A stretch of DNA of 9,527 bases, taken from positions 1 through 9,527 of the IMG/VR virus record IMGVR_UViG_2648501334_000004; one strand, given 5' to 3'. The translations under genes were made by a program, and so were the position numbers. The stretch's first letter is position 1, and every line of letters begins with the position of its first letter. Source of the stretch: a virus (lineage: Duplodnaviria; Heunggongvirae; Uroviricota; Caudoviricetes). A model generated the notes under the pieces. It worked only from the letters and a program-made list of their open reading frames with translations. It was not told where the DNA came from and searched no databases. This document shows positions 1 to 9,527 of the stretch, piece by piece.

Positions 1-827
1 TCTGGGATTGCTTCCAGAGCTTCCTGTGCAATGACACCAGCATAGGGCATACCGTTTTCTTTAAGCGTGTATGTATAGCCGTTCATTTTACGGATGCGGT
101 CGGTTGCATTATCGATCACCTGAATGTTGTCTTTCAGATCCCGGTCGGAATGCTGGTTAAATGCGGTGGCATGACATGCACCATTAACGCTTAACATATA
201 GGTGTTATCGGTATTTTTCTGCGCATAGAACATATAAGCGCCACCATCAGCACCAACTTCATATACAACCGGACGGGTAGAGTTACCCCACAAACTAGTA
301 GTAGCGCCAGAATGAGCGGTTCCCTGTGTGTTGATTGTCATGGTTGACCCATGATTGGCATATTTGATTTGTAATGTGTCTGTGCAGTCAAACTTAATAA
401 GCGCGTTACTTCCCCGCACACCATACGACATGAGACAGTTCCCCATCTTAAGGTAACCATCACTGCCTGGAAAAATTAATGTTCCACCGTAAAGATCGCT
501 AAAATCCCAAAAGATACCTTTTGTTCCATTGTGTGTGACAATCCTTGTCATTGTATCTTTTGTACCGTCAATATTTTTTCTAGTGTACATCTCACTATAA
601 GCGTTTTCGGTTTCTCCTGTCTTATTTGACAAGTGAATCTTACCGCTAAATATAGTTCCAGTGGTCGGCAATGTCTTTTGATCATAGATTACATTGCAAT
701 AACTATTCCATGTTGTTTTATTGTCTACATATGATTTTGTTGCGTAGCTTCCTTGATCGTTTTTTAATTTGCTAACGTCGGATTTTAGCGTTTTGATGTC
801 TTCAGGAATTACTGTCGATGTAGCCAT
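1..827 (-). CDS. Tail fiber / tailspike-like receptor-binding protein with a C-terminal peptidase S74 (endosialidase-type intramolecular chaperone) domain; partial, C-terminus lies beyond the left window edge
   Basis: Manual translation of the minus strand from ATG at 827..825 gives 275 codons with no stop before position 1 (MATSTVIPEDIKTLKSDVSKLKND...AFNQHSDRDLKDNIQVIDNATDRIRKMNGYTYTLKENGMPYAGVIAQEALEAIP). It is absent from the ORF track because it has no in-window stop. SD-like GAGGAAG lies 5 nt upstream of the ATG and overlaps the upstream TGA. From residue ~227 there is an S-D-x-x-x-K ... NI ... G-Y-x-Y ... G-V-I-A-Q-E pattern matching the catalytic Ser/Lys spacing and downstream consensus of S74 auto-cleaving chaperone domains (recalled, not searched). 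AT-rich composition. Confidence 0.7.
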   Translation of the reverse strand, partial: MATSTVIPEDIKTLKSDVSKLKNDQGSYATKSYVDNKTTWNSYCNVIYDQKTLPTTGTIFSGKIHLSNKTGETENAYSEMYTRKNIDGTKDTMTRIVTHNGTKGIFWDFSDLYGGTLIFPGSDGYLKMGNCLMSYGVRGSNALIKFDCTDTLQIKYANHGSTMTINTQGTAHSGATTSLWGNSTRPVVYEVGADGGAYMFYAQKNTDNTYMLSVNGACHATAFNQHSDRDLKDNIQVIDNATDRIRKMNGYTYTLKENGMPYAGVIAQEALEAIP

Positions 828-836
828 TTTTCTTCC

Positions 837-1118
837 TCACATCCAGCCACGAAGTTGATGCTCAACAGCAACCACGTATTCATCGAATAATGACGATATT
901 TGCGAATCATTAATGATGCGCACATTTACAAAATATCCGTCCTCCTTAACACATACCGGCTCGCCATCTTCAGTAAGTTCTCCGGTTTCTTTGTACACAT
1001 TACCTATCACGTCAATAAGAATATCATCCTGCATCGACTCGTCATCATAATAGCCAATGCTCTCCATAAAGGCCGAAAAGTCGGCCCTGTCTGCAAATTT
1101 GAGTGTTAAATCTTTCAT
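837..1118 (-). CDS. Hypothetical small acidic protein (93 aa); possible tail-fiber accessory, adaptor or chaperone
   Basis: ORF with ATG at 1118..1116 immediately abutting the stf stop (TAA at 1121..1119), and a stop (TGA 839..837) 9 nt before the next ATG. Co-oriented with the flanking fiber genes. Strongly acidic (about 21 D/E versus 7 K/R by count). No resemblance I can recognise to lambda Tfa. Confidence 0.6.
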   Translation of the reverse strand: MKDLTLKFADRADFSAFMESIGYYDDESMQDDILIDVIGNVYKETGELTEDGEPVCVKEDGYFVNVRIINDSQISSLFDEYVVAVEHQLRGWM

Positions 1119-3308
1119 TTAATACTCACCAATGAATTTTCGAACATCAGTTCGACCAGCAAACACACTAGAAACGTAAGTACTTGTCGACGCTTTATAA
1201 GTTTGCATATAAAGCTGACCGTAATATTTCTCAGTTGTGTTAAAAGCGTATGTAATTGACTCAATAGGTGGCACACCAGAAAAATCAAAAATACGCGGTG
1301 CTACATTAGGAGGAATATCGCCCCAATTTCTATTAACCTCGACAAGACACGTAAGCGGTCTATTATAGATATTATTTTCAGTTGGGATCGTCACCATATC
1401 ACTGGAGCGGGTTGCGGGTGCAGTTGTCGTAATAACAAAAGATGAAGCACATCCGCCGTTTTCAAATTGTGGTGTTGCAAGGTAAATATAATCTCCCGCT
1501 TCAGTTATACCACCTTTTTTCGGCGCATACTGAATCATTGCGCCAATTAAGGTTTCACCTTCAACAGCTTCTATAGTTGCCTCATAGAAAATCCACCCTG
1601 TAACCGGATCTTTAGTTGCAGTAGCTGCTATTCTATTGGCTGCTCCGCCAGTTTTTTCTATTATCAGAGTTCCGAAAGTTAAATAAGCATCTCCTAAAAA
1701 TGTATAAACCGACCCATCGTATTTTTCAAAACGCAAACGACAACGAAGACCATCAGGAGCTTTAACCCTGCATGAAACAGTGCAATACTTATTATCGCCA
1801 CTAACATCAATCCCCCGGGATGCACTGCATGTATGCAGACTAAGTGCAGATGATTGTCCTGTCATATTATCTTTTGTTCGCATTTTGGCATATGAAAAAC
1901 CAAATTCATCAACACCATTATTAGTTTTATCGATATTGCTGGTACTCGTCCATTCAGCGGGAGTATTGGATTTAACAAAATAGTTAGTGCGCTGTCCTTC
2001 AATCAATAAACCTTCTTTTTCAAATCGTGGCTCATCAATTTTAGCAACACTAAATACGCCTGATTTATTGATATATGTGGCAGTTGATGCGCGTTTAAAC
2101 TTAACAACCTTGTCGCCAGGCATCGTTATTTCATCATCACCAATAACAATTTTTTTATATGACGGCGAAAAGCCCGTAATCATATCCAGTGAATCATTAA
2201 ACGGTATCCACACATCAGGCAGTGGCTGTAAGACATATTTATACGGCTCTGCTGCCTGACTTGCATACTCTCTGGCTGCGTCTTCACTTGCTTTAGCTGC
2301 TGTCTGGCTTGCTGCCGATGCTTTCGCCGAGTTCGCCGCTGCAGTCTCGCTTGTCTTTGCATTGGTTTCACTGGTTTTTGCTGCTTTTTGACTGTTGGCT
2401 GATGCAGTGGCAGAAGCAGCCGCCGCGCTTGCAGAACCAGCTGCAGCACTCTCGCTTTGGGCTGCTGCATCCTGACTGTTTTTCGCCGCAGTTTCGCTGG
2501 CTTTGGCATTCGTTTCGCTGGTCTTCGCTGCCGTCTGGCTGGACTTTGCGTTAGTTTCACTCGTCTTCGCAGCTTTCTGGCTGTTAGCCGCAGCAGTTGC
2601 TGATCCAGCTGCTGAAGTCGCAGAACCGGCTGCCGCGCTCTCGCTTTGGGCTGCTGCAACCTGGCTGTTTTTTGCCGCAGTTTCACTGGCTTTGGCATTC
2701 GTTTCGCTGGTTTTCGCTGCCGTCTGGCTGGACTTTGCGTTGGTTTCGCTCGTCTTTGCGGCTGTCTCGCTATTTTTCGCGTTGGTTTCTGATTTTTTGG
2801 CTGCTGTCGCGGAGTTTGCCGATGCAGTCTTTGAGGTCGCTGCCGCCTGTGCACTATTAGCTGCATTCGTTTCTGAGGTTTTCGCCGCGTTCTTCGATGA
2901 TGCCGCTGCAGTTTCGGATTTCTTTGCCGCCGCTGCGCTCTGAGAGGCGGCTTCAGCGTTGCGTGCCGCTTCTTCCACCATTTCCTCAAAACGACGCAAT
3001 GCCTCCGGCATGACATCATCTTCCGTCATGGCACCGAGAAAATCATTCAGCGTCCCCGGCTTAGAATCTTCATACACGGTGATGGTCCCGGCATGTGAAG
3101 GCGGAAAACCTTCAACCAGCAGGGTGACGCTGTACTGGCCATACTCAACATCCATGCTGTAACGTCCGGCTTCATCCGGATTTTCAGAAGCCACCGTGTT
3201 CACCAGTACCGTGGTGCTGTTACGCTTTGCCTTCAGTTGAATAGTGCAGTTCTGTATTGGTTTTCCCGCACCATCTTTCAGCACACCTGAGATTTTTACT
3301 GCTGCCAT
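1119..3308 (-). CDS. stf: Side tail fiber protein Stf: conserved lambda-like N-terminal region, Ala/Ser/Thr-rich repeat shaft, and a divergent low-GC distal domain
   Basis: N-terminus MAAVKISGVLKDG...GRYSMDVEYGQYSV...FPPSHAGTITVYED matches the lambdoid Stf N-terminal family (recalled). The track start at 3314 is a GTG; the ATG at 3308..3306 has GGAG 5 nt upstream and is taken as the start. Position directly downstream of lom as in lambda. Stop TAA at 1121..1119. Confidence 0.9.
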   Translation of the reverse strand: MAAVKISGVLKDGAGKPIQNCTIQLKAKRNSTTVLVNTVASENPDEAGRYSMDVEYGQYSVTLLVEGFPPSHAGTITVYEDSKPGTLNDFLGAMTEDDVMPEALRRFEEMVEEAARNAEAASQSAAAAKKSETAAASSKNAAKTSETNAANSAQAAATSKTASANSATAAKKSETNAKNSETAAKTSETNAKSSQTAAKTSETNAKASETAAKNSQVAAAQSESAAAGSATSAAGSATAAANSQKAAKTSETNAKSSQTAAKTSETNAKASETAAKNSQDAAAQSESAAAGSASAAAASATASANSQKAAKTSETNAKTSETAAANSAKASAASQTAAKASEDAAREYASQAAEPYKYVLQPLPDVWIPFNDSLDMITGFSPSYKKIVIGDDEITMPGDKVVKFKRASTATYINKSGVFSVAKIDEPRFEKEGLLIEGQRTNYFVKSNTPAEWTSTSNIDKTNNGVDEFGFSYAKMRTKDNMTGQSSALSLHTCSASRGIDVSGDNKYCTVSCRVKAPDGLRCRLRFEKYDGSVYTFLGDAYLTFGTLIIEKTGGAANRIAATATKDPVTGWIFYEATIEAVEGETLIGAMIQYAPKKGGITEAGDYIYLATPQFENGGCASSFVITTTAPATRSSDMVTIPTENNIYNRPLTCLVEVNRNWGDIPPNVAPRIFDFSGVPPIESITYAFNTTEKYYGQLYMQTYKASTSTYVSSVFAGRTDVRKFIGEY
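2265..2954 (-). repeat. In-frame coding low-complexity repeat region of stf (KTSETNAK / AAKxSETxA-type units), containing a 189-bp (63-codon) tandem duplication at roughly 2358..2770
   Basis: DNA strings recur at an offset of exactly 189 nt, e.g. ctcgctttggg at 2451 and 2640, and gctgccgtctggctggactttgcg at 2527 and 2716. At protein level, KSSQTAAKTSETNAKASETAAKNSQ(V/D)AAAQSESAAAGSA... occurs twice in tandem with a few substitutions. Confidence 0.85.
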
Positions 3309-3319
3309 ATCCACTCCAC

Positions 3320-3346
3320 AAAAAAGCCCGCCTGAACCGGCGGGCT
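3320..3346 (-). terminator. Rho-independent terminator downstream of lom (minus-strand transcript)
   Basis: Minus-strand RNA reads AGCCCGCC-GGUUCA-GGCGGGCU followed by UUUUUU: an 8-bp GC-rich stem (3326-3332 pairing with 3339-3345, plus A3325/T3346) with a 6-nt loop and a 6-U tract (complement of A3320-A3325). It lies 27 nt after the lom stop and immediately before the stf RBS. Confidence 0.75.
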
Positions 3347-3372
3347 GTCATAACACTGTGTTACCTGGCTAA

Positions 3373-3972
3373 TCAGAACTTATAACCGACACCCACGATG
3401 AAACCGTCAGTGCGCCAGTCGCCACTGCCGGAGCCTTCATAAGCAATATCAATGGCCACGGATTCGGTCGGGTTAAACTGCACGCCAGCTCCCCACGCCA
3501 GAGACGTGTTGCTGTGGCGATCGTCATCACTTCCGGTCAGCACATCGTGCGTTTTCCCCTTGTTGTCAGTTACGCGGAGATAATCCCCGGAGAACGTCGA
3601 AACACGGCTGTAAGCCACACCTGCCATCGCATAAGCACTGAACCATTCATTCACGCGTACAGATGGCCCCGCCATCATGCTGAACCAGCGGTTACGCACT
3701 GAATCTTCATGCCAGCGGGTATCGCTGTAATGCGTTCTTTGCTCATCTTTGGCATTGGCATAACTGAATGACGTCACCAGCCCCAGCGTGTCCGTAAATT
3801 CATAACGGTATTTCACGTTAATGCCCTTCAGGTCATCACTGCCTGGCATATCAGTATGGGTCTGAAGATACCCGGCGCTTAGTGTGGACTGATGCTCTGC
3901 TGCGCTCGCTGGCGTACCAGCGGCAACCAGCCAGACTACTGCGGACAGAATAACAGCACATAATTTACGCAT
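3373..3972 (-). CDS. lom: Lom outer-membrane protein (Ail/Lom/PagC family beta-barrel), a lysogenic-conversion moron
   Basis: 199-aa ORF with a signal-peptide-like N-terminus (MRKLCAVILSAVVWLVAAGTPASA) and a C-terminal aromatic residue (…GVGYKF) typical of outer-membrane beta-barrels. Sequence closely resembles lambda Lom (recalled). Sits between J and stf as in lambda. ATG at 3972 with GAGAGG 6 nt upstream. Confidence 0.9.
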   Translation of the reverse strand: MRKLCAVILSAVVWLVAAGTPASAAEHQSTLSAGYLQTHTDMPGSDDLKGINVKYRYEFTDTLGLVTSFSYANAKDEQRTHYSDTRWHEDSVRNRWFSMMAGPSVRVNEWFSAYAMAGVAYSRVSTFSGDYLRVTDNKGKTHDVLTGSDDDRHSNTSLAWGAGVQFNPTESVAIDIAYEGSGSGDWRTDGFIVGVGYKF

Positions 3973-3995
3973 AATTACCTCTCGCTTTTCTGCAA

Positions 3996-4020
3996 TAAAA
4001 AAGGCACCATTTCTGGTGCC
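3996..4020 (-). terminator. Rho-independent terminator downstream of J (tJ-like)
   Basis: Minus-strand RNA reads GGCACCA-GAAA-UGGUGCC followed by UUUUUUAUU: a 7-bp stem (4003-4009 pairing with 4014-4020) with a 4-nt loop and a U tract. It lies 19 nt after the J stop and about 23 nt before the lom ATG. Confidence 0.7.
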
Positions 4021-4039
4021 CGTATCTGGGTTATAAAAT

Positions 4040-7000
4040 TCAGCTAATCGTGATGCCTGCAGTGGCTTTCTTCATCACAACAACCAGCAAATCGCTGATA
4101 CTTGCTGTGGGATACCAGCCATTTACCAGCCATGCTGACACCGAAAACTCCAGTGTCATGTGACCGTGACCGGCAGGCATATCAATAACGCCACTGTAAA
4201 TCAGCGTATTATCCAGCGCGGTACGGTTATAAATTTCAGCACCGTTTTTCCGCACTATCAGACGGCATGAGGAGTAAATATCAGTATGCTCTCTCTCATG
4301 CTTAGCGCCACTGAATGCCACCGCCGGAATAACAATTTGCCGGTCAAACGGCTGATCGTCATAAACCCTGACGGTAATGGTCCCTGATGGCCACCGCTCC
4401 GGTGCTCGGGAGTCACGGGGGAAAGCTTTGCCCACTGTTTTAACGAGATCGCCTTCAATCTGGTTCGCGGACAGTTTTCCCAGAACCCGGCAGTTCTCGT
4501 TAATCGTGACGTTGTTGAGCGTCCCGGAGTTCGCATTCACGTTACCGCTGATATCGGCATTTTTCGCCGTCAGCCGCCCGTCCGGTGTCAGGGAAAATGC
4601 CGGAGGATTACCGCCGCTGGTAATGGTGGGAGCCGTCAGATATTTCAGGAACACTTCGTTCATGAATATCTGATTGCCCTGCGCCACAAACATCGGCGTT
4701 TCATTCCCGTTTGCCGGGTCAATAAATGCGATACGGTTAGCGGCAACCAGGAACTGGCTCAGTTTGCCTTCCTCCGTGTCCTCCATGCTGAGGCCAAGCC
4801 CCGCGACATAATGTTTGCCGTCTTTGGTCTGCTCAATTTTGACAGCCCACATGGCATTCCACTTATCGTTGGCGTCCTTCCACTCTTTCGAAAACTCCTC
4901 CAGTCTGCTGGCGTTATCCTCCGTCAGCTCGACTTTTTCCAGCAGCTCCTTGCCGAGATGGGATTCGGTTATCTTGCCTTTGAAAAAATCCAGGTAACCT
5001 TCCGCATCATCGCTCGCCCGACCGACAGCCTCCACGAATATCGATTTGCCGACGGTGTTCACACTGCGAACGTAAAAATAATAATCATGGCCCGGTTTGA
5101 TATTGATACTGGCGGCTATCCAGTACAGCGCCGTGCCAAGATAACGCGCGCTGGTTTCAACCTGCCTGATATCCGCAATCCGATTTTCCGAGAACCAGAA
5201 CTCAAACTGTACCGTCGGATCATAAACCGCAAGATGCGGCGTGGCAGTTATCTGAAAATAGCCCGGCGTCAGCTCAATCCGCGATGGCGCTGCCGGTGCG
5301 GCAATCCGGAACGATACCGACGCCGGATCGCCCTGCTGCCCCCACGCATTTACCGCCCGGACTGTCAGACTGTAATTTCCCAGAGCCAGCTGCCTGAAGC
5401 GGTATGTGGTTTCCGTCGTCCGGGCCGTGCTGACCAGCCGCTCACTGCCGTCATCCGCTGCCACGGTCAGGCGAAGCATAAAGCTCACGCCCTTCACCAC
5501 CTTCGGCGTATCCCAGCGCGCCAGCACCTGGTATTCCCCGCTGTCTGCGGTGACTTCGGCGGTCAGGTGCTGCACCGCTGGCGGCGTGACACCATTCACC
5601 GTGCCGCTCTGGTCGCCGTCAAAGTGCGCCCCGTTATCCACGATGGCTTCTTTTTCCGGTACATGCTGCACGGCAGTGATGGCATACGTGCCGTCATCGT
5701 TCTCACGGATACTCACACAGCGGAACAGGCGCTGGCGCAGCGTCGGCAGCTTCAGCCCCCACACGCTGTATTCGGCAACGCCGTCAGGAACCCGACTCAC
5801 TTTCACCTTCACGCCGTCGGTGACGGACTGAACCTCCACGCTGACCGGACTCCCCTGCCCGTCAACCAGGCTTATCAGCGTGGTACCGGAGGATGGCAGC
5901 GTGATTTCACGGTCGAGCGTCAGCGTCCGGGTCTGGCTGTTCACCGCCAGCACGCGCCCGCCAATGCTGATCCCCGCATAGTCATCATCGCAGATTTCAA
6001 TAACATCACCCGGTACATGGCGAAGCCCTTCTGCGCCGACGCTGAAATCCACGGTCTGCGTTTCCAGCAGTTCTGTTTTAATCAGCCACAGCCCGGCGCG
6101 GTGTGCCTGCCCCCGGCTGGTACAGCCAAAGGCATCCATCTTCGTGACGTTACGACCGTAACGGGCAATGGCCTGCGTGTCCTCCACAAGCTCTGTCGCC
6201 GTCTCCCAGCCGTTATTCGGGTCAATCCAGTTCACCTCAACGGCATTATGACGGTCCTTCAGGGCGCTGAAGCTGTAGCGGAACGGCGCGCCATCATCCG
6301 GCATCGCCACATTACTGCGGTTATAGGTCCACACCTTATCCGATGGCCGGTCCTGCACGAACGTCAGCGTCTGCCCGTTCCATACCGGCATACAGCGCAT
6401 CGCCGAGCAGAAATCACTGAGCACATCCCACGCCTTGCGCTGCGTGGTCAGCCAGGCATTACAGGTGATGCGCGGCTCCGTGCCACCAAAGCCATCCGGC
6501 ACCGACTGGTCGCAATTCTGGCCGATGACATACAGCGCCCATTTGTCCACATCCGCCGCACCGAGACGCTTCCCCATGCCGTAGCGCGGATGGGTCAGCA
6601 TATCCCACAGACACCAGGCCATGTTGTTGCTGTATGCCGGTTTAAACGTTCCGTCCCAGATACCGCTGTATTGCCGCGTCTGCGGGTTATAGTTCGACGG
6701 CACCTGCAGAATGCGCCCGCGAAGATGATAATTACGGCTCACCTGCTGGCTGCCGAACTGCTCCGAATCCACCTGTACGCCGACCAGTGCCGTGTTCGGG
6801 TAGCCCTGTTTCACATCGATGATTTCGGTGTATGACGACCAGAGCGTTTTGTTCTGCAGCTGGTCTGTGGTGCTGTCCGGCGTCATCCTGCGCATCCGGA
6901 TATTAAACGGGCGCGGCGGCAGGTTATCCACCACCACCGAGGCCAGATACTGCGAGGTGGTTTTGCCCTTAATGGTGATGTCTTTTTCTGTCACCCAGCC

Positions 7001-7435
7001 ACCGTTACGCTGTATCTGAACCAGCAGGCGGACTTCCGATGGATTCCTGTCCCCCTTTGAGGTGGTTTCCACCAGTGCCTGCACACCGAAGGTAAAGCGC
7101 AGACGGTCGATGTTTGCCGACGTGATGGTCCGGGTGATCGGCGTGTCATATTTCACTTCCGTACCCAGCACCGTCTCGGAACCGGAGGATTCAAATCCCT
7201 CCGGCGGTGTCTGCTCCTGCTCACCTGCCCGGAACACCACCGTGACACCGGAGATGTTGGTATTCCCCTCACTGTCCAGCACCGGTGTACTGTTCAGCAG
7301 CACGCTTTTTAATCCATCCACCGGACCTTCAATCGGCCCTTCGCTGATGGCATCGATCACACTCAGTAACTGCGTGGATTTCAGGTTATCCTTCGCTTCG
7401 CGCGGGGTATGCCCCTTACTGCTGCCTTTACCCAT
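4040..7435 (-). CDS. J: Tail tip attachment / host specificity protein J (central tail fiber)
   Basis: 1131-aa ORF; N-terminus [44 protein letters not shown] and most of the body match lambda gpJ (about 1132 aa, recalled). ATG at 7435 with GGAG 8 nt upstream. The last ~150 aa look divergent from lambda J as I recall it. Confidence 0.95.
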
Positions 7436-7457
7436 TCGTCATGCTCCATAAACGACA

Positions 7458-7477
7458 AAACCGCCCGGAGGCGGTTT
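7458..7477 (-). other. Stem-loop in the I-J intergenic region (possible weak attenuator or translational-control hairpin)
   Basis: AAACCGCC / GGCGGTTT inverted repeat (8 bp) with a 4-nt loop. On the minus-strand RNA it is followed by UGUCGUUUAU, which is not a clean U tract, and lies about 20 nt upstream of the J ATG. Confidence 0.3.
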
Positions 7478-7495
7478 CACATAAAACATTTTGCA

Positions 7496-8167
7496 TCAGC
7501 GACCAATCACCACAACCTGACCACCGTCCCCTTCGTCTGCCGTGCTGATCTCCTGAGAAACCACCCGCGACCCCACACGCATTTCACCGTACAGAACAGG
7601 CAGAACATTGCCCTGAGCAACCATGTTATCCAGTGAGGAAAAATAGGTGTTCTGTTTGCCGTTATCCGTTGTCTGTGTACGGGGAGTTCTGGCTTTCGGT
7701 GCCAGCATCTGCGCCACACCACCGAGCACCATACTGGCACCGAGAGAAAACAGGATGCCGGTCATACCACCGGCCCCAATGGCTGCCCCCCATGCTGCAA
7801 GGGTGGCTCCGGCAGTAAAGAATGATCCGGCAATGGCGGCAGCTCCCAGGACAATCTGGAATACACCACCTGACTTGGCCCCGGCGACTCTGGGAACAAT
7901 ATGAATCACAGCGCCATCAGGCAGAGTCTCATGTAACTGCGCCGTTAATCCGGACGTGCTGACATCCCGCCCGGCAATCCGTACCTGATACCAGCCGCCG
8001 CTCAGTTTCTGACGAAACGCCGGGAGCTGTGTGGCCAGTGCGCGGATGGCTTCAGCCCCCGTTTTCACACGAAGGTCGATGCGGCGGCCAAATCGTTGCA
8101 AATCCCCGTAAAGGCAGATGCGTGCCATTCCCGGTGACGCCAGAGGGAGTGTGTGCGTCGCTGCCAT
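7496..8167 (-). CDS. I: Tail assembly protein I
   Basis: 223-aa ORF with ATG at 8167; sequence MAATHTLPLASPGMARICLYGDLQRFGRRIDLRVKTGAEAIRALATQLP... matches lambda gpI (223 aa, recalled). Gly/Ala-rich hydrophobic segment in the C-terminal half. Starts inside the 3' end of K in another frame. Confidence 0.9.
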   Translation of the reverse strand: MAATHTLPLASPGMARICLYGDLQRFGRRIDLRVKTGAEAIRALATQLPAFRQKLSGGWYQVRIAGRDVSTSGLTAQLHETLPDGAVIHIVPRVAGAKSGGVFQIVLGAAAIAGSFFTAGATLAAWGAAIGAGGMTGILFSLGASMVLGGVAQMLAPKARTPRTQTTDNGKQNTYFSSLDNMVAQGNVLPVLYGEMRVGSRVVSQEISTADEGDGGQVVVIGR

Positions 8168-8808
8168 TTGTCGGTATACCTCTCTCGTTTACTCAGTTGT
8201 TCAGGAATATGGTGCAGCAGCTCGCCATCACCACAGTAAATGGCGGCATGATTCGGCACCGATGAACCAAAGCAGCACAGCAGCACGTCGCCAGGCTGCG
8301 CCTCTGTCAGTGCGACACGGTAAAAACCAGTCGCCTCCATATTGTCAAGATAGAGATTCTGACCGTTACGCCACCAGTCATCCCCGCGATGAAAATCCGG
8401 CATCTCAATCCCCGCCAGATGATAAGCATCCCGGAACAGCGTGTAACAGTCCGTCACCCCGTGCTCAAAGCGACGCCCGGTGAGATGCGGCACACAGCGG
8501 AACTTGTGAATCGCCCCCCGGCAGACCAGCCACCACGGCAAATCACTCTGCACCTGCAGCCGCCGGTCAGCCTCACTCAGCCAGGGCAGACCACCGGGAT
8601 GACTGTGGACCAGTGCCACAATCTCACCCTGCATCTCTGCCTGCAGCCAGTCCTCCGGAGCCATCCGGAAATAATCCTCCGGCTCACCGGAAATATTCAC
8701 GCAGGGGAAATATCTTTCCCCCTCCGGCGCTCTCACCACGAAGCCGCACGACTCCGCTGGCGCACATCGCCGGGCGTGCGCCAGAATCGCTGATTCTGTC
8801 TCTGTCAT
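8065..8808 (-). CDS. K: Tail tip assembly protein K (N-terminal MPN/JAMM-type domain plus C-terminal NlpC/P60-like Cys/His domain), 247-aa long form
   Basis: The ORF-track start at 8850 is TTG; the first ATG (8808..8806) gives MTETESAILAHARRCAPAESCGFV.... JAMM signature E...H-S-H-x7-S-x2-D is present (APAESCGF; ALVHSHPGGLPWLSEAD). Candidate NlpC/P60 catalytic Cys/His (GVTDCYTLF; VPNHAAIY). ATG is 4 nt after the L stop. The 103-nt overlap with I matches lambda K/I as I recall it. Confidence 0.85.
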   Translation of the reverse strand: MTETESAILAHARRCAPAESCGFVVRAPEGERYFPCVNISGEPEDYFRMAPEDWLQAEMQGEIVALVHSHPGGLPWLSEADRRLQVQSDLPWWLVCRGAIHKFRCVPHLTGRRFEHGVTDCYTLFRDAYHLAGIEMPDFHRGDDWWRNGQNLYLDNMEATGFYRVALTEAQPGDVLLCCFGSSVPNHAAIYCGDGELLHHIPEQLSKRERYTDKWQRRTHSLWRHREWHASAFTGICNDLAAASTFV

Positions 8809-8812
8809 GGGA

Positions 8813-9511
8813 TTACTGCGAAAGTTTGTTAATGGAAAGGAAGCCGCCAAAGTTGCCGACGTTATTGCGAAACTTACAGCCGCTCAGGCATTTGCTGCAT
8901 TTATCCTTCGTGATATCGGACGTCGGCTGGTCATATTCATCCGCGACCGCCGGACCGCTATAACCGCACTCATCGCCGCGATAGGTCCAGGTGCAGGTGT
9001 TGGCCAGCATGATACGCCCCGGAAAAACAGAGCCATCCGTTTCAGTCGGTGTGGACAGTACAAAAGAGGCACTCACCGCGCTCAGTTCGCTGCACTGCTC
9101 AATGCGCCAGCGGCTGATCACCTCCTGCTCCGGATCGGCGCCACTGTTTCCGTTGACGAAGTTCACCGCATCCAGAAAACGGGCGTAAACCTTACGCCGG
9201 ACCACCGTTCCACCGACCAGACTCTGCAGATCTTCCGCCATCCCGGTGACCATACCGTACAGGTTAGAAACCGTCAGTGTGGGGCGCGTACTGGTGCCTT
9301 TGCCATTCAGTTCAAAACCACTCCCCTGAATGGGATACGGCTGATACTGTCGCCCCTGCCAGGTGACCGGCTCACCTTTTTCGTTCTGCTCATTACAGAA
9401 AAAATAACGTTCTCCACCGACCTCTGTCAGGTCGATTTCCCAGAGCACCACGCTGGCCGACTGCTCCGCACGGGTGCATTCATTCAGTGTTTCCTGCCGG
9501 ATATCCTGCAT
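8813..9511 (-). CDS. L: Tail tip protein L
   Basis: 232-aa ORF with ATG at 9511; matches lambda gpL in length (232 aa, recalled) and sequence (MQDIRQETLNECTRAEQSASVVLWEIDLTEVGGERYFFCNEQ...). C-terminal cysteine cluster (C..C...C..C...C). The start overlaps the stop of the upstream partial ORF by 1 nt (TGATG). Confidence 0.9.
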   Translation of the reverse strand: MQDIRQETLNECTRAEQSASVVLWEIDLTEVGGERYFFCNEQNEKGEPVTWQGRQYQPYPIQGSGFELNGKGTSTRPTLTVSNLYGMVTGMAEDLQSLVGGTVVRRKVYARFLDAVNFVNGNSGADPEQEVISRWRIEQCSELSAVSASFVLSTPTETDGSVFPGRIMLANTCTWTYRGDECGYSGPAVADEYDQPTSDITKDKCSKCLSGCKFRNNVGNFGGFLSINKLSQ

Positions 9512-9527
9512 CAGTTCACCACCTGTT
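9511..9527 (-). CDS. M: Tail assembly protein M, extreme C-terminus only (partial; N-terminus beyond the right window edge)
   Basis: Minus-strand reading CAG GTG GTG AAC TGA encodes ...QVVN*, with the TGA sharing its A with the L ATG. This matches the 1-nt M/L overlap and the ...QVVN C-terminus I recall for lambda gpM. Only 5 codons are visible. Confidence 0.5.

Follow-up and report, generated by a model that had tools for sequence, protein, structure and literature searches.

A short fibre protein with a C-terminal S74 chaperone domain as a probable distal side-tail-fibre subunit of lambda-like Escherichia coli prophages

Branched lateral fibres made of several proteins are a known design of T5-like phages. 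For DT57C, there is genetic evidence for branched LtfA/LtfB fibres (PMC4728585), in which LtfB reaches the virion only via the first fibre protein, and each of the two proteins has its own receptor specificity (PMC4728585; PMC10713586). The N-terminus of LtfB has been reported to resemble gp15 of phiEco32. In small siphoviruses, lateral fibres may likewise comprise two or more proteins (PMC8594841). For IrisVonRoten (Bas32, Tequintavirus), AlphaFold-Multimer models, which are predictions only, show the distal fibre gp24 attached to gp22, a proximal fibre with a protruding galectin-like domain; it should be noted that the carrier of gp24 is named gp22 in one place of that paper and gp23 in another (PMC11990801). 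The self-cleaving chaperone domain that recurs in such proteins has been characterised in T5 pb1, where the catalytic pair Ser1264/Lys1269 has the Ser-x4-Lys spacing and cleavage takes place just before the Ser (PMC4690869).

We analysed a 9,527-nt stretch of a Caudoviricetes record (IMG/VR IMGVR_UViG_2648501334_000004, positions 1 to 9,527), hereafter the window. It contains a module of three genes in the order large side-fibre gene with a lectin-like C-terminal domain, gene of a ~93-aa protein, and short fibre gene. The same order is found in IrisVonRoten gp22/gp23/gp24, and all three products are homologous to those of the module: the large fibre is 46% identical to gp22 over residues 133-695 (E=1e-155), the 93-aa protein is ~39% identical to the small protein gp23 (~92-aa), and the distal fibre gp24 shares with the short fibre the N-terminal motif (MVTKTVIPTDITKLK) as well as a C-terminal S74 domain. 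The differences are also clear. The window element is a temperate lambdoid prophage, unlike the T5-like IrisVonRoten, and its proximal fibre is anchored by a lambdoid phage_tail_N domain, whereas that of IrisVonRoten has a T5-type N-terminus. IrisVonRoten gp24 has 574 aa and has been described as T-shaped, one of its two receptor-binding domains being gp12-like and the other T5-like, whereas the short fibre has 346 aa and is without the gp12-like collar region, the overall identity being ~25%.

Other systems resemble the locus in part. LtfB of DT57C and DT571/2 is also a second, separately encoded fibre with a C-terminal autocleavable domain, pfam13884 (PMC4728585; PMC10713586); in DT57C, however, both LtfA and LtfB have the chaperone domain, whereas in the window only the short fibre has it, the C-terminus of the large fibre being a lectin-like domain. 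T5 pb1 and the K1F endosialidase are similar in having a C-terminal Ser-x4-Lys domain that is cut before the Ser and a terminal long helix or coiled coil (PMC4690869), but in T5 pb1 (1396 aa) the anchor, shaft, tip and chaperone belong to one chain, whereas here the anchor and the shaft are on a separate protein. The module occupies the genomic position of lambda Stf/Tfa, downstream of J and lom, and its large fibre has the Stf N-terminal anchor PF08400 (phage_tail_N), which the Pfam scan found in this 731-aa protein and not in the short fibre ORF; unlike in lambda, a separate protein with its own chaperone domain forms the distal part. Finally, PHROG 6578 (1210 aa) is a single-chain lambdoid fibre that combines a Stf N-terminus with an S74 domain. 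Residues 36-224 of the large fibre match its profile positions 1-200, and residues 147-275 of the short fibre ORF match positions 999-1128; thus, the two proteins taken together look like a one-chain fibre split in two, with the distinction that there are two genes, that the 93-aa gene lies between them and that the large part has a lectin-like domain of its own.

The short fibre gene is cut by the window edge. The earlier note had described, on the minus strand of positions 1-827, a frame missing from the ORF list that starts at ATG 827-825 and is open for 275 codons to the edge, and translation bears this out. The gap in the list has a mechanical cause, because such lists omit frames running off the window end, and the last 71 codons and the stop of this gene lie beyond it. 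ATG 827 is the first possible start, because TGA 839-837, the stop codon of the preceding gene, stands just upstream of the four-codon gap before it. In near-identical E. coli prophages the complete gene has 1041 nt and encodes 346 aa, and the window protein differs from the complete 346-aa WP_134876044 by two residues only. The probability of 275 open codons by chance is ~1e-8 (41% GC; stop probability of 0.0645 per codon), and none of 2000 shuffles attained this length, the longest open frame being 199 codons. Comparison of the window fragment to the PhiR11_1 copy yielded a dN/dS of 0.10 (78 synonymous and 42 non-synonymous differences), and for residues 227-275 the value was 0.008; therefore, the gene is under purifying selection. 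A chance ORF is ruled out by these two lines of evidence, and the unlisted frame is a real, common gene of E. coli lambda-like prophages. The coordinates of the gene, its parts and its neighbours are given in the table.

Table. Features of the short fibre gene and the adjoining module genes in the window
Feature	Position	Strand	Evidence or remark
Stf-like proximal side tail fibre, 731 aa	1119..3314	-	PF08400, E=1.7e-68; NF048003, E=1.3e-15
Acidic accessory protein, 93 aa, PHROG 1361 (function unknown)	837..1118	-	Directly between the large fibre and IMC fibre genes
Shine-Dalgarno-like GAGGAAG	832..838	-	4 nt upstream of ATG 827; overlaps TGA of the 93-aa gene; read from sequence
Short fibre gene, first 275 of 346 codons	3..827	-	Open frame; PHROG 4563 match
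N-terminal motif MATSTVIPEDIKTLK and start of predicted coiled coil, residues 1-30	738..827	-	Candidate docking plug
Variable allele-swapped block, residues 31-105; candidate receptor-contacting domain	513..737	-	Allele comparison
Conserved beta-rich fibre body, residues 106-226, ending at predicted mature C-terminus H226	150..512	-	
Peptidase_S74 IMC domain, residues 227-275 (first 49 of ~120)	3..149	-	PF13884; dN/dS 0.008; profile match to S16 gp37
Ser227 codon, predicted nucleophile	147..149	-	First PF13884 position; invariant in 53 homologues
Lys232 codon, predicted general base (Ser+5)	132..134	-	Invariant in 53 homologues; T5 pb1 spacing

The sequence elements on which the earlier note had based an S74 intramolecular-chaperone (IMC) domain, namely Ser227, Lys232, GVIAQE and the stretch NIQVIDNATDRIRKMNGYTYTLKENGMPYAGVIAQEA, are all present as claimed, and the assignment itself is upheld by the Pfam HMM search. 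PF13884 (Peptidase_S74) matches residues 227-275 of the window fragment with E=2.5e-12 and 47.3 bits, the curated gathering cut-off being 22 bits, and it matches the complete 346-aa homologue with E=6.4e-14 and 52.4 bits. The domain takes up the C-terminus of the full-length homologue (residues 227-346), and its residues 304-345 are predicted to be helical (pLDDT 80-88). Among 53 homologues, D228 and L231 are invariant together with the catalytic pair, and a profile of these homologues matches the IMC-bearing S16 gp37 (6f45) with E=2e-7. T5 pb1 was detected neither by phmmer nor by the 53-homologue profile search, and the Arg/Asp folding sensor described for T5 pb1 could not be mapped onto the short fibre protein. 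Ser227 corresponds to Ser1264 of T5 pb1, so that H226|S227 would be the scissile bond; by this analogy, we infer that the short fibre protein cleaves between H226 and S227.

Three parts can be distinguished upstream of Ser227. Residues 1-30 are 94-99% conserved within the 346-aa family, and the pattern of the first 15 residues, MxTxTxIPxDIxxLK, is common to the 40%-identical T1-like homologues, gp60 of phage tonn and IrisVonRoten gp24. These 15 residues, being conserved across lambdoid, T1-like and T5-like phages, are likely to be a docking plug. A helix is predicted for residues 9-29 (AF2 monomer), and the number of heptad-like repeats varies among short fibre homologues. The protein had been described as having no obvious long tail-anchoring shaft; it does have a short anchor, consisting of the conserved plug followed by a predicted coiled coil. 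The second part, residues 31-105, is predicted to form beta strands (pLDDT 75-83, AF2 monomer). In 24 distinct 346-aa alleles this block is only 30-53% identical to the window protein, whereas its flanks are 72-100% identical, and matches in E. coli genomes are split in two pieces at it. The third part is the fibre body, in which W180, G181, R185, V188 and E190 are invariant among the 53 homologues. It contains a T4 gp34-like repeat at residues ~170-225, and the 53-homologue profile matches the gp34 C-terminal region (5nxf/4uxe) with E=5e-9. The AF2 monomer of a 346-aa homologue is weak (mean pLDDT 63), its Foldseek search against PDB yielded nothing at E<=0.001 (best match T4 gp34, E=0.07), and phmmer of the short fibre protein against PDB gave weak matches only. 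A weak monomer model and an uninformative fold search are as expected for an intertwined trimer.

We also considered an enzymatic tailspike, since the earlier note had left room for a tailspike of some kind. S74 is the sole significant Pfam match on the full-length protein, with no recognisable glycosidase, lyase or esterase domain and no long beta-helix, so that nothing suggests an enzymatic one; the mature part has only 226 aa, and every PHROG match is to a tail-fibre family. This candidate was rejected.

The gene had been called unusual, a description that does not fit its family. It matches PHROG 4563 ("tail fiber protein") at profile positions 1-275 of 346 with E=1.9e-160, and in near-identical E. 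coli prophages RefSeq names the product "tail fiber domain-containing protein". DNA matching the mature part is found in ~12% of complete E. coli genomes, and also in the isolated phages PhiR11_1, HannyBb and Tritos and in many T1-like phages. Alleles as short as 224-234 aa occupy the same gene slot. The NCBIfam search gave no match to the short fibre, to the 93-aa protein or to the membrane protein encoded downstream, and literature searches found nothing on PhiR11_1/ECOR prophages and nothing relevant on engineered or chimeric Stf proteins. The short fibre gene is thus an ordinary one: its family is already annotated, its architecture has published precedents, and nothing about it is conceptually new.

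The module is kept in the isolated phages PhiR11_1 and HannyBb, on the T1-like contigs with 40%-identical homologues and in the T1-like phage tonn, and in those lambdoid, T1-like, T5-like and rV5-like phages that we examined, a large fibre gene precedes the homologue of the 93-aa gene. In IMG/VR, a motif-bearing ORF comes next at all 78 loci that have DNA after the 93-aa gene, and conversely a homologue of the 93-aa gene precedes each of the 76 motif-bearing ORFs, although these loci are mostly close relatives and the counts are not independent samples; the 76 loci also carry the LP[DE]VWIP fibre junction, except for one chimeric locus (L105). In phage 21 and in naswa, an rV5-like phage, the short fibre is missing although the large fibre and the small protein are retained, and the dependence within the module is therefore one-way. 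There is no terminator-like site between the three genes. No match to a Tfa-type chaperone was found on the ORFs scanned. The short fibre is presumably carried by the Stf-like 731-aa protein, which consists of the phage_tail_N anchor, an Ala/Ser-rich coiled coil and the lectin-like C-terminal domain.

The copy of the Stf-like gene in the window has a rare 206-bp deletion, by which the conserved last ~69 residues are lost; the allele without it encodes 799 aa, and none of the ten complete E. coli genomes that match best has this deletion. The other tail genes of the window (L, K, I, J and lom) are full length and have strong Pfam matches.

Taken together, the short protein probably belongs to a multi-protein side tail fibre as its distal or branch subunit; it would trimerise, cleave itself at H226|S227 and dock on the Stf-like fibre. 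In the mechanism that we propose, three chains would associate via the C-terminal chaperone domain, which would template the folding of the trimeric fibre body. After correct folding, Ser227, activated by Lys232, would cut the H226|S227 bond and free a 13.2-kDa chaperone fragment, leaving a mature chain of 24.8 kDa per subunit (from 37.9 kDa). The N-terminal plug and coiled coil would then attach the short trimer to the Stf-like proximal fibre at its distal end, and the side fibre of the virion would be bipartite or branched, binding by the Stf lectin-like domain and by the short-fibre tip; both of these probably recognise surface glycans such as O-antigen. Trimer formation, presence in the virion and the docking site are inferred. 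The earlier note had already raised, as one possibility, that a separately encoded fibre docks on Stf, and this fits the conserved module homologous to gp22/23/24 and the published AlphaFold-Multimer model. The Stf region LPDVWIPFNDSL...TGF may be the partner of the plug. Since the 206-bp deletion took the C-terminal ~69 residues of Stf, the side fibre may fail to assemble in this host.

The docking site is the point at which another reading departs from this one. The self-cleaving fibre could attach not to the Stf shaft but via the 93-aa protein as an adaptor, or directly to the tail tip (J/L/K region), in which case it would make up a second, independent set of fibres. Between the two fibre genes there is always the 93-aa gene, packed tightly against both, and its product has a confident compact fold (AF2 pLDDT 88) with no informative structural neighbour and no known chaperone relative; T4 gp35 offers a comparison for such a joint or adaptor. 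The BASEL paper, as mentioned, is ambiguous between gp22 and gp23 as the carrier. In addition, identity falls to 44% for the Stf C-terminal domain and to 36% for the small protein where the short fibre still has 88%, so that the socket must be something conserved. Against this, the 93-aa protein co-varies with the large-fibre lectin-like domain (Spearman 0.56), not with the short fibre, and it persists without the short fibre in phage 21 and naswa. It is never fused to a fibre among 1.8 billion representative proteins: all 52 matches in the fusion search are small stand-alone proteins, except for two spurious long ones. Moreover, the tail tips of lambdoid, T1-like and T5-like phages are unrelated, yet the short fibre always accompanies the same large-fibre C-terminal region. 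We therefore regard docking away from Stf as unlikely; the 93-aa protein more probably serves the lectin-like domain, as its partner or assembly factor, than the short fibre.

Two further readings deny the short protein a structural role in this virion, and both seem very improbable to us. It might be a trans-acting assembly chaperone of the large fibre, as suggested by record names such as "chaperone of endosialidase" and "putative lateral tail fiber chaperone" (JK16, SECphi27, ESCO3, PeterMerian) and by the shortest alleles (224-234 aa), which have ~100-115 residues before the chaperone domain. However, these names just transfer the title of the Pfam domain to the whole protein, and the S74 domains characterised so far all act in cis on their own polypeptide and are then cleaved off (PMC4690869). 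The part before the cleavage site has fibre repeats, a coiled coil and a swapped variable block typical of receptor-binding proteins, and the same domain of the large fibre also occurs in phage 21 and in rV5-like phages, which lack the short gene. Alternatively, the gene might be an intact-looking leftover of a decaying prophage that makes no functional fibre. The deletion in the adjacent Stf-like gene, which removes the conserved end of the lectin-like domain, would agree with decay, as would the disrupted copies of the short fibre gene found elsewhere (90, 189 and 227 aa), and the 3' end of the present copy lies outside the window. Conversely, the 275 visible codons are intact, with just the two residue differences from the complete homologue, and L, K, I, J and lom are, as mentioned, full length. 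A distal subunit carried on the Stf-like fibre remains our preferred interpretation.

A more far-reaching version of the Stf-docking model is tentative, and we hold it to be possible but doubtful: the 15-residue plug and the LP[DE]VWIP...TGF junction of the large fibre, perhaps with the 93-aa protein, would be a portable plug-and-socket by which tips are swapped among phages. If this is true, lambdoid, T1-like, T5-like and Queuovirinae phages swap self-chaperoned distal tips of 224 to 574 aa, and the 93-aa protein would act as a joint in the structure and not as a chaperone. Lambda-like prophages with three separate host-binding elements (J, the lectin-like Stf domain and the short-fibre tip) would then be present in about one E. 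coli genome in six. For annotation, the locus illustrates that a gap at the edge of an ORF track can conceal an ordinary gene, and that names of the "chaperone of endosialidase" type mislabel a whole fibre subunit by its C-terminal domain. The short conserved N-terminal plug may serve as a handle for fibre-tip swapping in host-range engineering. The finding would extend the branched, multi-protein lateral-fibre design of T5-like phages to common lambda-like prophages of E. coli.

Translation of the minus strand of window 1-827 gives the open frame described in the earlier note, which starts at ATG 827 and reaches the window edge after 275 sense codons; we refer to its product as the short fibre. 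ATG 827 is the earliest possible start, because the TGA of the preceding gene stands four codons upstream (TGA-GGA-AGA-AAA), and a ribosome-binding-like sequence, GAGGAAG, is located at 838-832. The probability of 275 open codons arising by chance is ~1e-8 at 41% GC, and the longest open frame in shuffled sequence (n = 2000) had 199 codons; its absence from the ORF track is mechanical, as frames running off the window are omitted there. The complete gene in E. coli strain 23AR0303 comprises 1041 nt and encodes 346 aa (WP_134876044, "tail fiber domain-containing protein"), with two residues differing from the window copy; therefore, 71 codons lie beyond the window. Many E. coli chromosomes carry DNA near-identical to this gene.

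The proposed S74 chaperone domain was supported: Pfam Peptidase_S74 (PF13884) matched residues 227-275 with 47.3 bits and the full 346-aa protein with 52.4 bits (cut-off 22). Ser227 (codon 149-147), Lys232 (codon 134-132), and ...AGVIAQEA, all named in the earlier note, were recovered in the translation, and S227, D228, L231, and K232 are unchanged in 53 homologues. The Ser/Lys spacing and the predicted scissile bond before Ser are as in T5 pb1, in which cleavage occurs between Thr1263 and Ser1264, with Lys1269 (PMC4690869); a sequence match of T5 pb1 to the short fibre was not found. The products computed for a cut between H226 and S227 have predicted masses of 24.8 kDa (residues 1-226) and 13.2 kDa (residues 227-346).

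Residues 1-275 correspond to positions 1-275 of 346 in the PHROG 4563 profile ("tail fiber protein", E = 1.9e-160), and the family profile matches the C-terminal region of T4 gp34 (residues ~170-225 of the short fibre, E = 5e-9) and the chaperone-bearing S16 gp37 (E = 2e-7). In the sequence features that were tested, the short fibre agrees with the S74 chaperone-bearing fibre family. Of the separately encoded fibre or tailspike suggested originally, the fibre stands and the tailspike was rejected; identity as an Stf-type protein was rejected as well. Compared with phage PhiR11_1, the window copy has an overall dN/dS ratio of 0.10, and the ratio for its chaperone part is 0.008. The view that the gene is unusual was not borne out, as DNA of the mature part is present in 650 of 5426 complete E. 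coli genomes (250 at >=80% coverage) and the N-terminal motif in at least 60 phage records. The 93-aa gene preceding it is found in 988 of the 5426 genomes. Whole-fibre homologues in four phage records (H120, H137, H150, and H153) are called "endosialidase chaperone", "chaperone of endosialidase", or "putative lateral tail fiber chaperone", which is the title of the C-terminal domain carried over to the whole protein.

Genes of the window and segments of the short fibre
Feature	Position	Strand	Remarks
L	8813-9511	-	
K	8065-8850	-	
I	7496-8167	-	
J	4040-7435	-	
Lom	3373-3972	-	
731-aa Stf-like protein	1119-3314	-	phage_tail_N anchor, Ala/Ser-rich coiled coil, C-terminal "head spike fiber"/lectin-like domain
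93-aa acidic protein	837-1118	-	PHROG 1361, unknown function
Short fibre	1-827	-	
N-terminal part	residues 1-30		94-99% conserved in family; predicted helix 9-29
Swapped variable block	residues 31-105, window 513-737	-	30-53% identity to window, 24 alleles
Beta-rich body	residues 106-226		conserved
Chaperone domain	residues 227-346		long helix at end

Receptor-binding fibres usually combine an attachment end and a chaperone that are both conserved with a middle that varies, and the short fibre shows this layout. Residues 1-15 are common to several phage lineages, the number of heptad-like repeats in the N-terminal part varies among homologues, and the variable block is flanked on both sides by near-invariant sequence. 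This block is closer to the N-terminus than to the cleavage site, a possible sign of a laterally placed binding domain as opposed to a strictly terminal tip. The monomer model of the 346-aa homologue was poor (pLDDT 63), and a fold search with it against PDB returned no matches at E <= 0.001.

The window represents the tail end of a lambda-like prophage, with every listed gene on the minus strand. Strong terminator-like hairpins with T-runs are located directly 3' of J and lom (window 4002-4021 and 3325-3346, minus strand), and no terminator-like site was found in the window between the Stf-like, 93-aa, and short fibre genes. Because the side-fibre genes are downstream of both hairpins, their expression from the late operon would need read-through (Q-type antitermination). 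In complete genomes, the short fibre gene is followed by a 95-aa membrane protein gene and then by the prophage end beside zinT. No family match was found for this conserved predicted membrane protein (95-97 aa, MDITPFLHALCAVAAQ...). At the compared locus L001, its gene (5457-5744) is the final one ahead of the prophage end, with a GC-rich hairpin (5766-5780) between it and the fibre gene; in phage 21 (L010:4292-4585), its gene is directly 3' of the 92-aa gene. A 674-codon open frame antisense to J (window 4811-6835, plus strand) is probably a by-product of J codon composition.

The trio of a large fibre, a ~92-aa protein, and a chaperone-bearing fibre occurs in several lineages, including the isolated phages PhiR11_1 and HannyBb, T1-like ~50-kb contigs (homologues of only 40% identity), the T1-like phage tonn (third gene of only 224 aa), and the T5-like IrisVonRoten (gp22/gp23/gp24). 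Among 80 IMG/VR loci found through the 93-aa protein, the next ORF opens with MATSTVIPxDIxxLK in 78 of the 78 with DNA 3' of its gene, and the reverse search placed the 93-aa gene upstream of 76 of 76 motif-bearing ORFs, although these counts are not independent because the loci are mostly close relatives. The conserved LP[DE]VWIP large-fibre junction is upstream of all 76 except at the chimeric locus L105. The ORF next to the 93-aa gene falls into two types, one of 346 aa (with Ser227) and a "mini" one of 227-241 aa; a few copies are disrupted. Mini fibres (224-241 aa) fill this slot at L020:6292-6996, in ~30 other IMG/VR loci, and in tonn (L011:4292-4966); they carry the N-terminal motif, with only ~100-115 residues ahead of SSIRYK, and a diverged S74 domain that scores 22.1 bits and thus only just reaches the cut-off. 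Dependence within the module runs one way: in phage 21 and in naswa, an rV5-like phage, the small protein and the large-fibre domain are retained although the short fibre is absent.

Identity between PhiR11_1 and the window is 44% for the Stf C-terminal domain, 36% for the small protein, and 88% for the short fibre. The 93-aa protein co-varies with the lectin-like domain, not with the short fibre, and because it also persists without the latter, we rate it as a putative partner of the lectin-like domain or a factor in the assembly of that domain. Likewise, homologues of the 93-aa gene are found 3' of lectin-type fibres where the short fibre is missing, namely in phage 21 and in rV5-like phages. 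The family is small (52 clusters at 50% identity) and always stand-alone, and a search for fusions to a fibre found none. An alpha/beta fold was predicted for the protein with confidence (pLDDT 88); no informative structural neighbour of the model was found, and the fold gave no functional clue.

It should be noted that 206 bp of the Stf-like gene are deleted (junction at window 1119-1130) compared to its closest relatives, locus L002 and the ten best-matching complete E. coli genomes, in which the deletion is not present. The protein consequently ends in ...KFIGEY (stop), losing the last ~69 residues (...IRIGGQ..RHLFGH.RN.R.WHK.LTD.Q..) that are kept in every other homologue compared (lambdoid, T1-like, T5-like, and rV5-like). 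The lost region coincides exactly with a weak Laminin_G_3 match (E = 0.0018, below cut-off); thus, the lectin-like domain of the window copy is probably truncated. As a result of the deletion, the fibre apparatus of this prophage may be defective. Due to the deletion, the Stf-like, 93-aa, and short fibre genes share one reading frame (window 825-3314, minus strand), separated only by TAA (1121-1119) and by TGA plus three codons (839-828).

An AlphaFold-Multimer model has been published for the IrisVonRoten proteins homologous to the module (PMC11990801), and the genetics of DT57C indicate that LtfB gets to the virion via LtfA (PMC4728585; PMC10713586). Based on these two precedents and the one-way co-occurrence, we propose that the C-terminal domain of the short fibre would nucleate trimerisation and folding, that the protein would cut itself at H226/S227, and that its N-terminal plug would dock distally on the Stf-like fibre, at the end of the latter. 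The resulting side fibre would be bipartite or branched and have two binding elements. Lateral fibres of small siphoviruses may comprise two or more proteins (PMC8594841). Among lambdoid phages, the short fibre is the equivalent of the distal subunits that have been described for T5-like phages and small siphoviruses.
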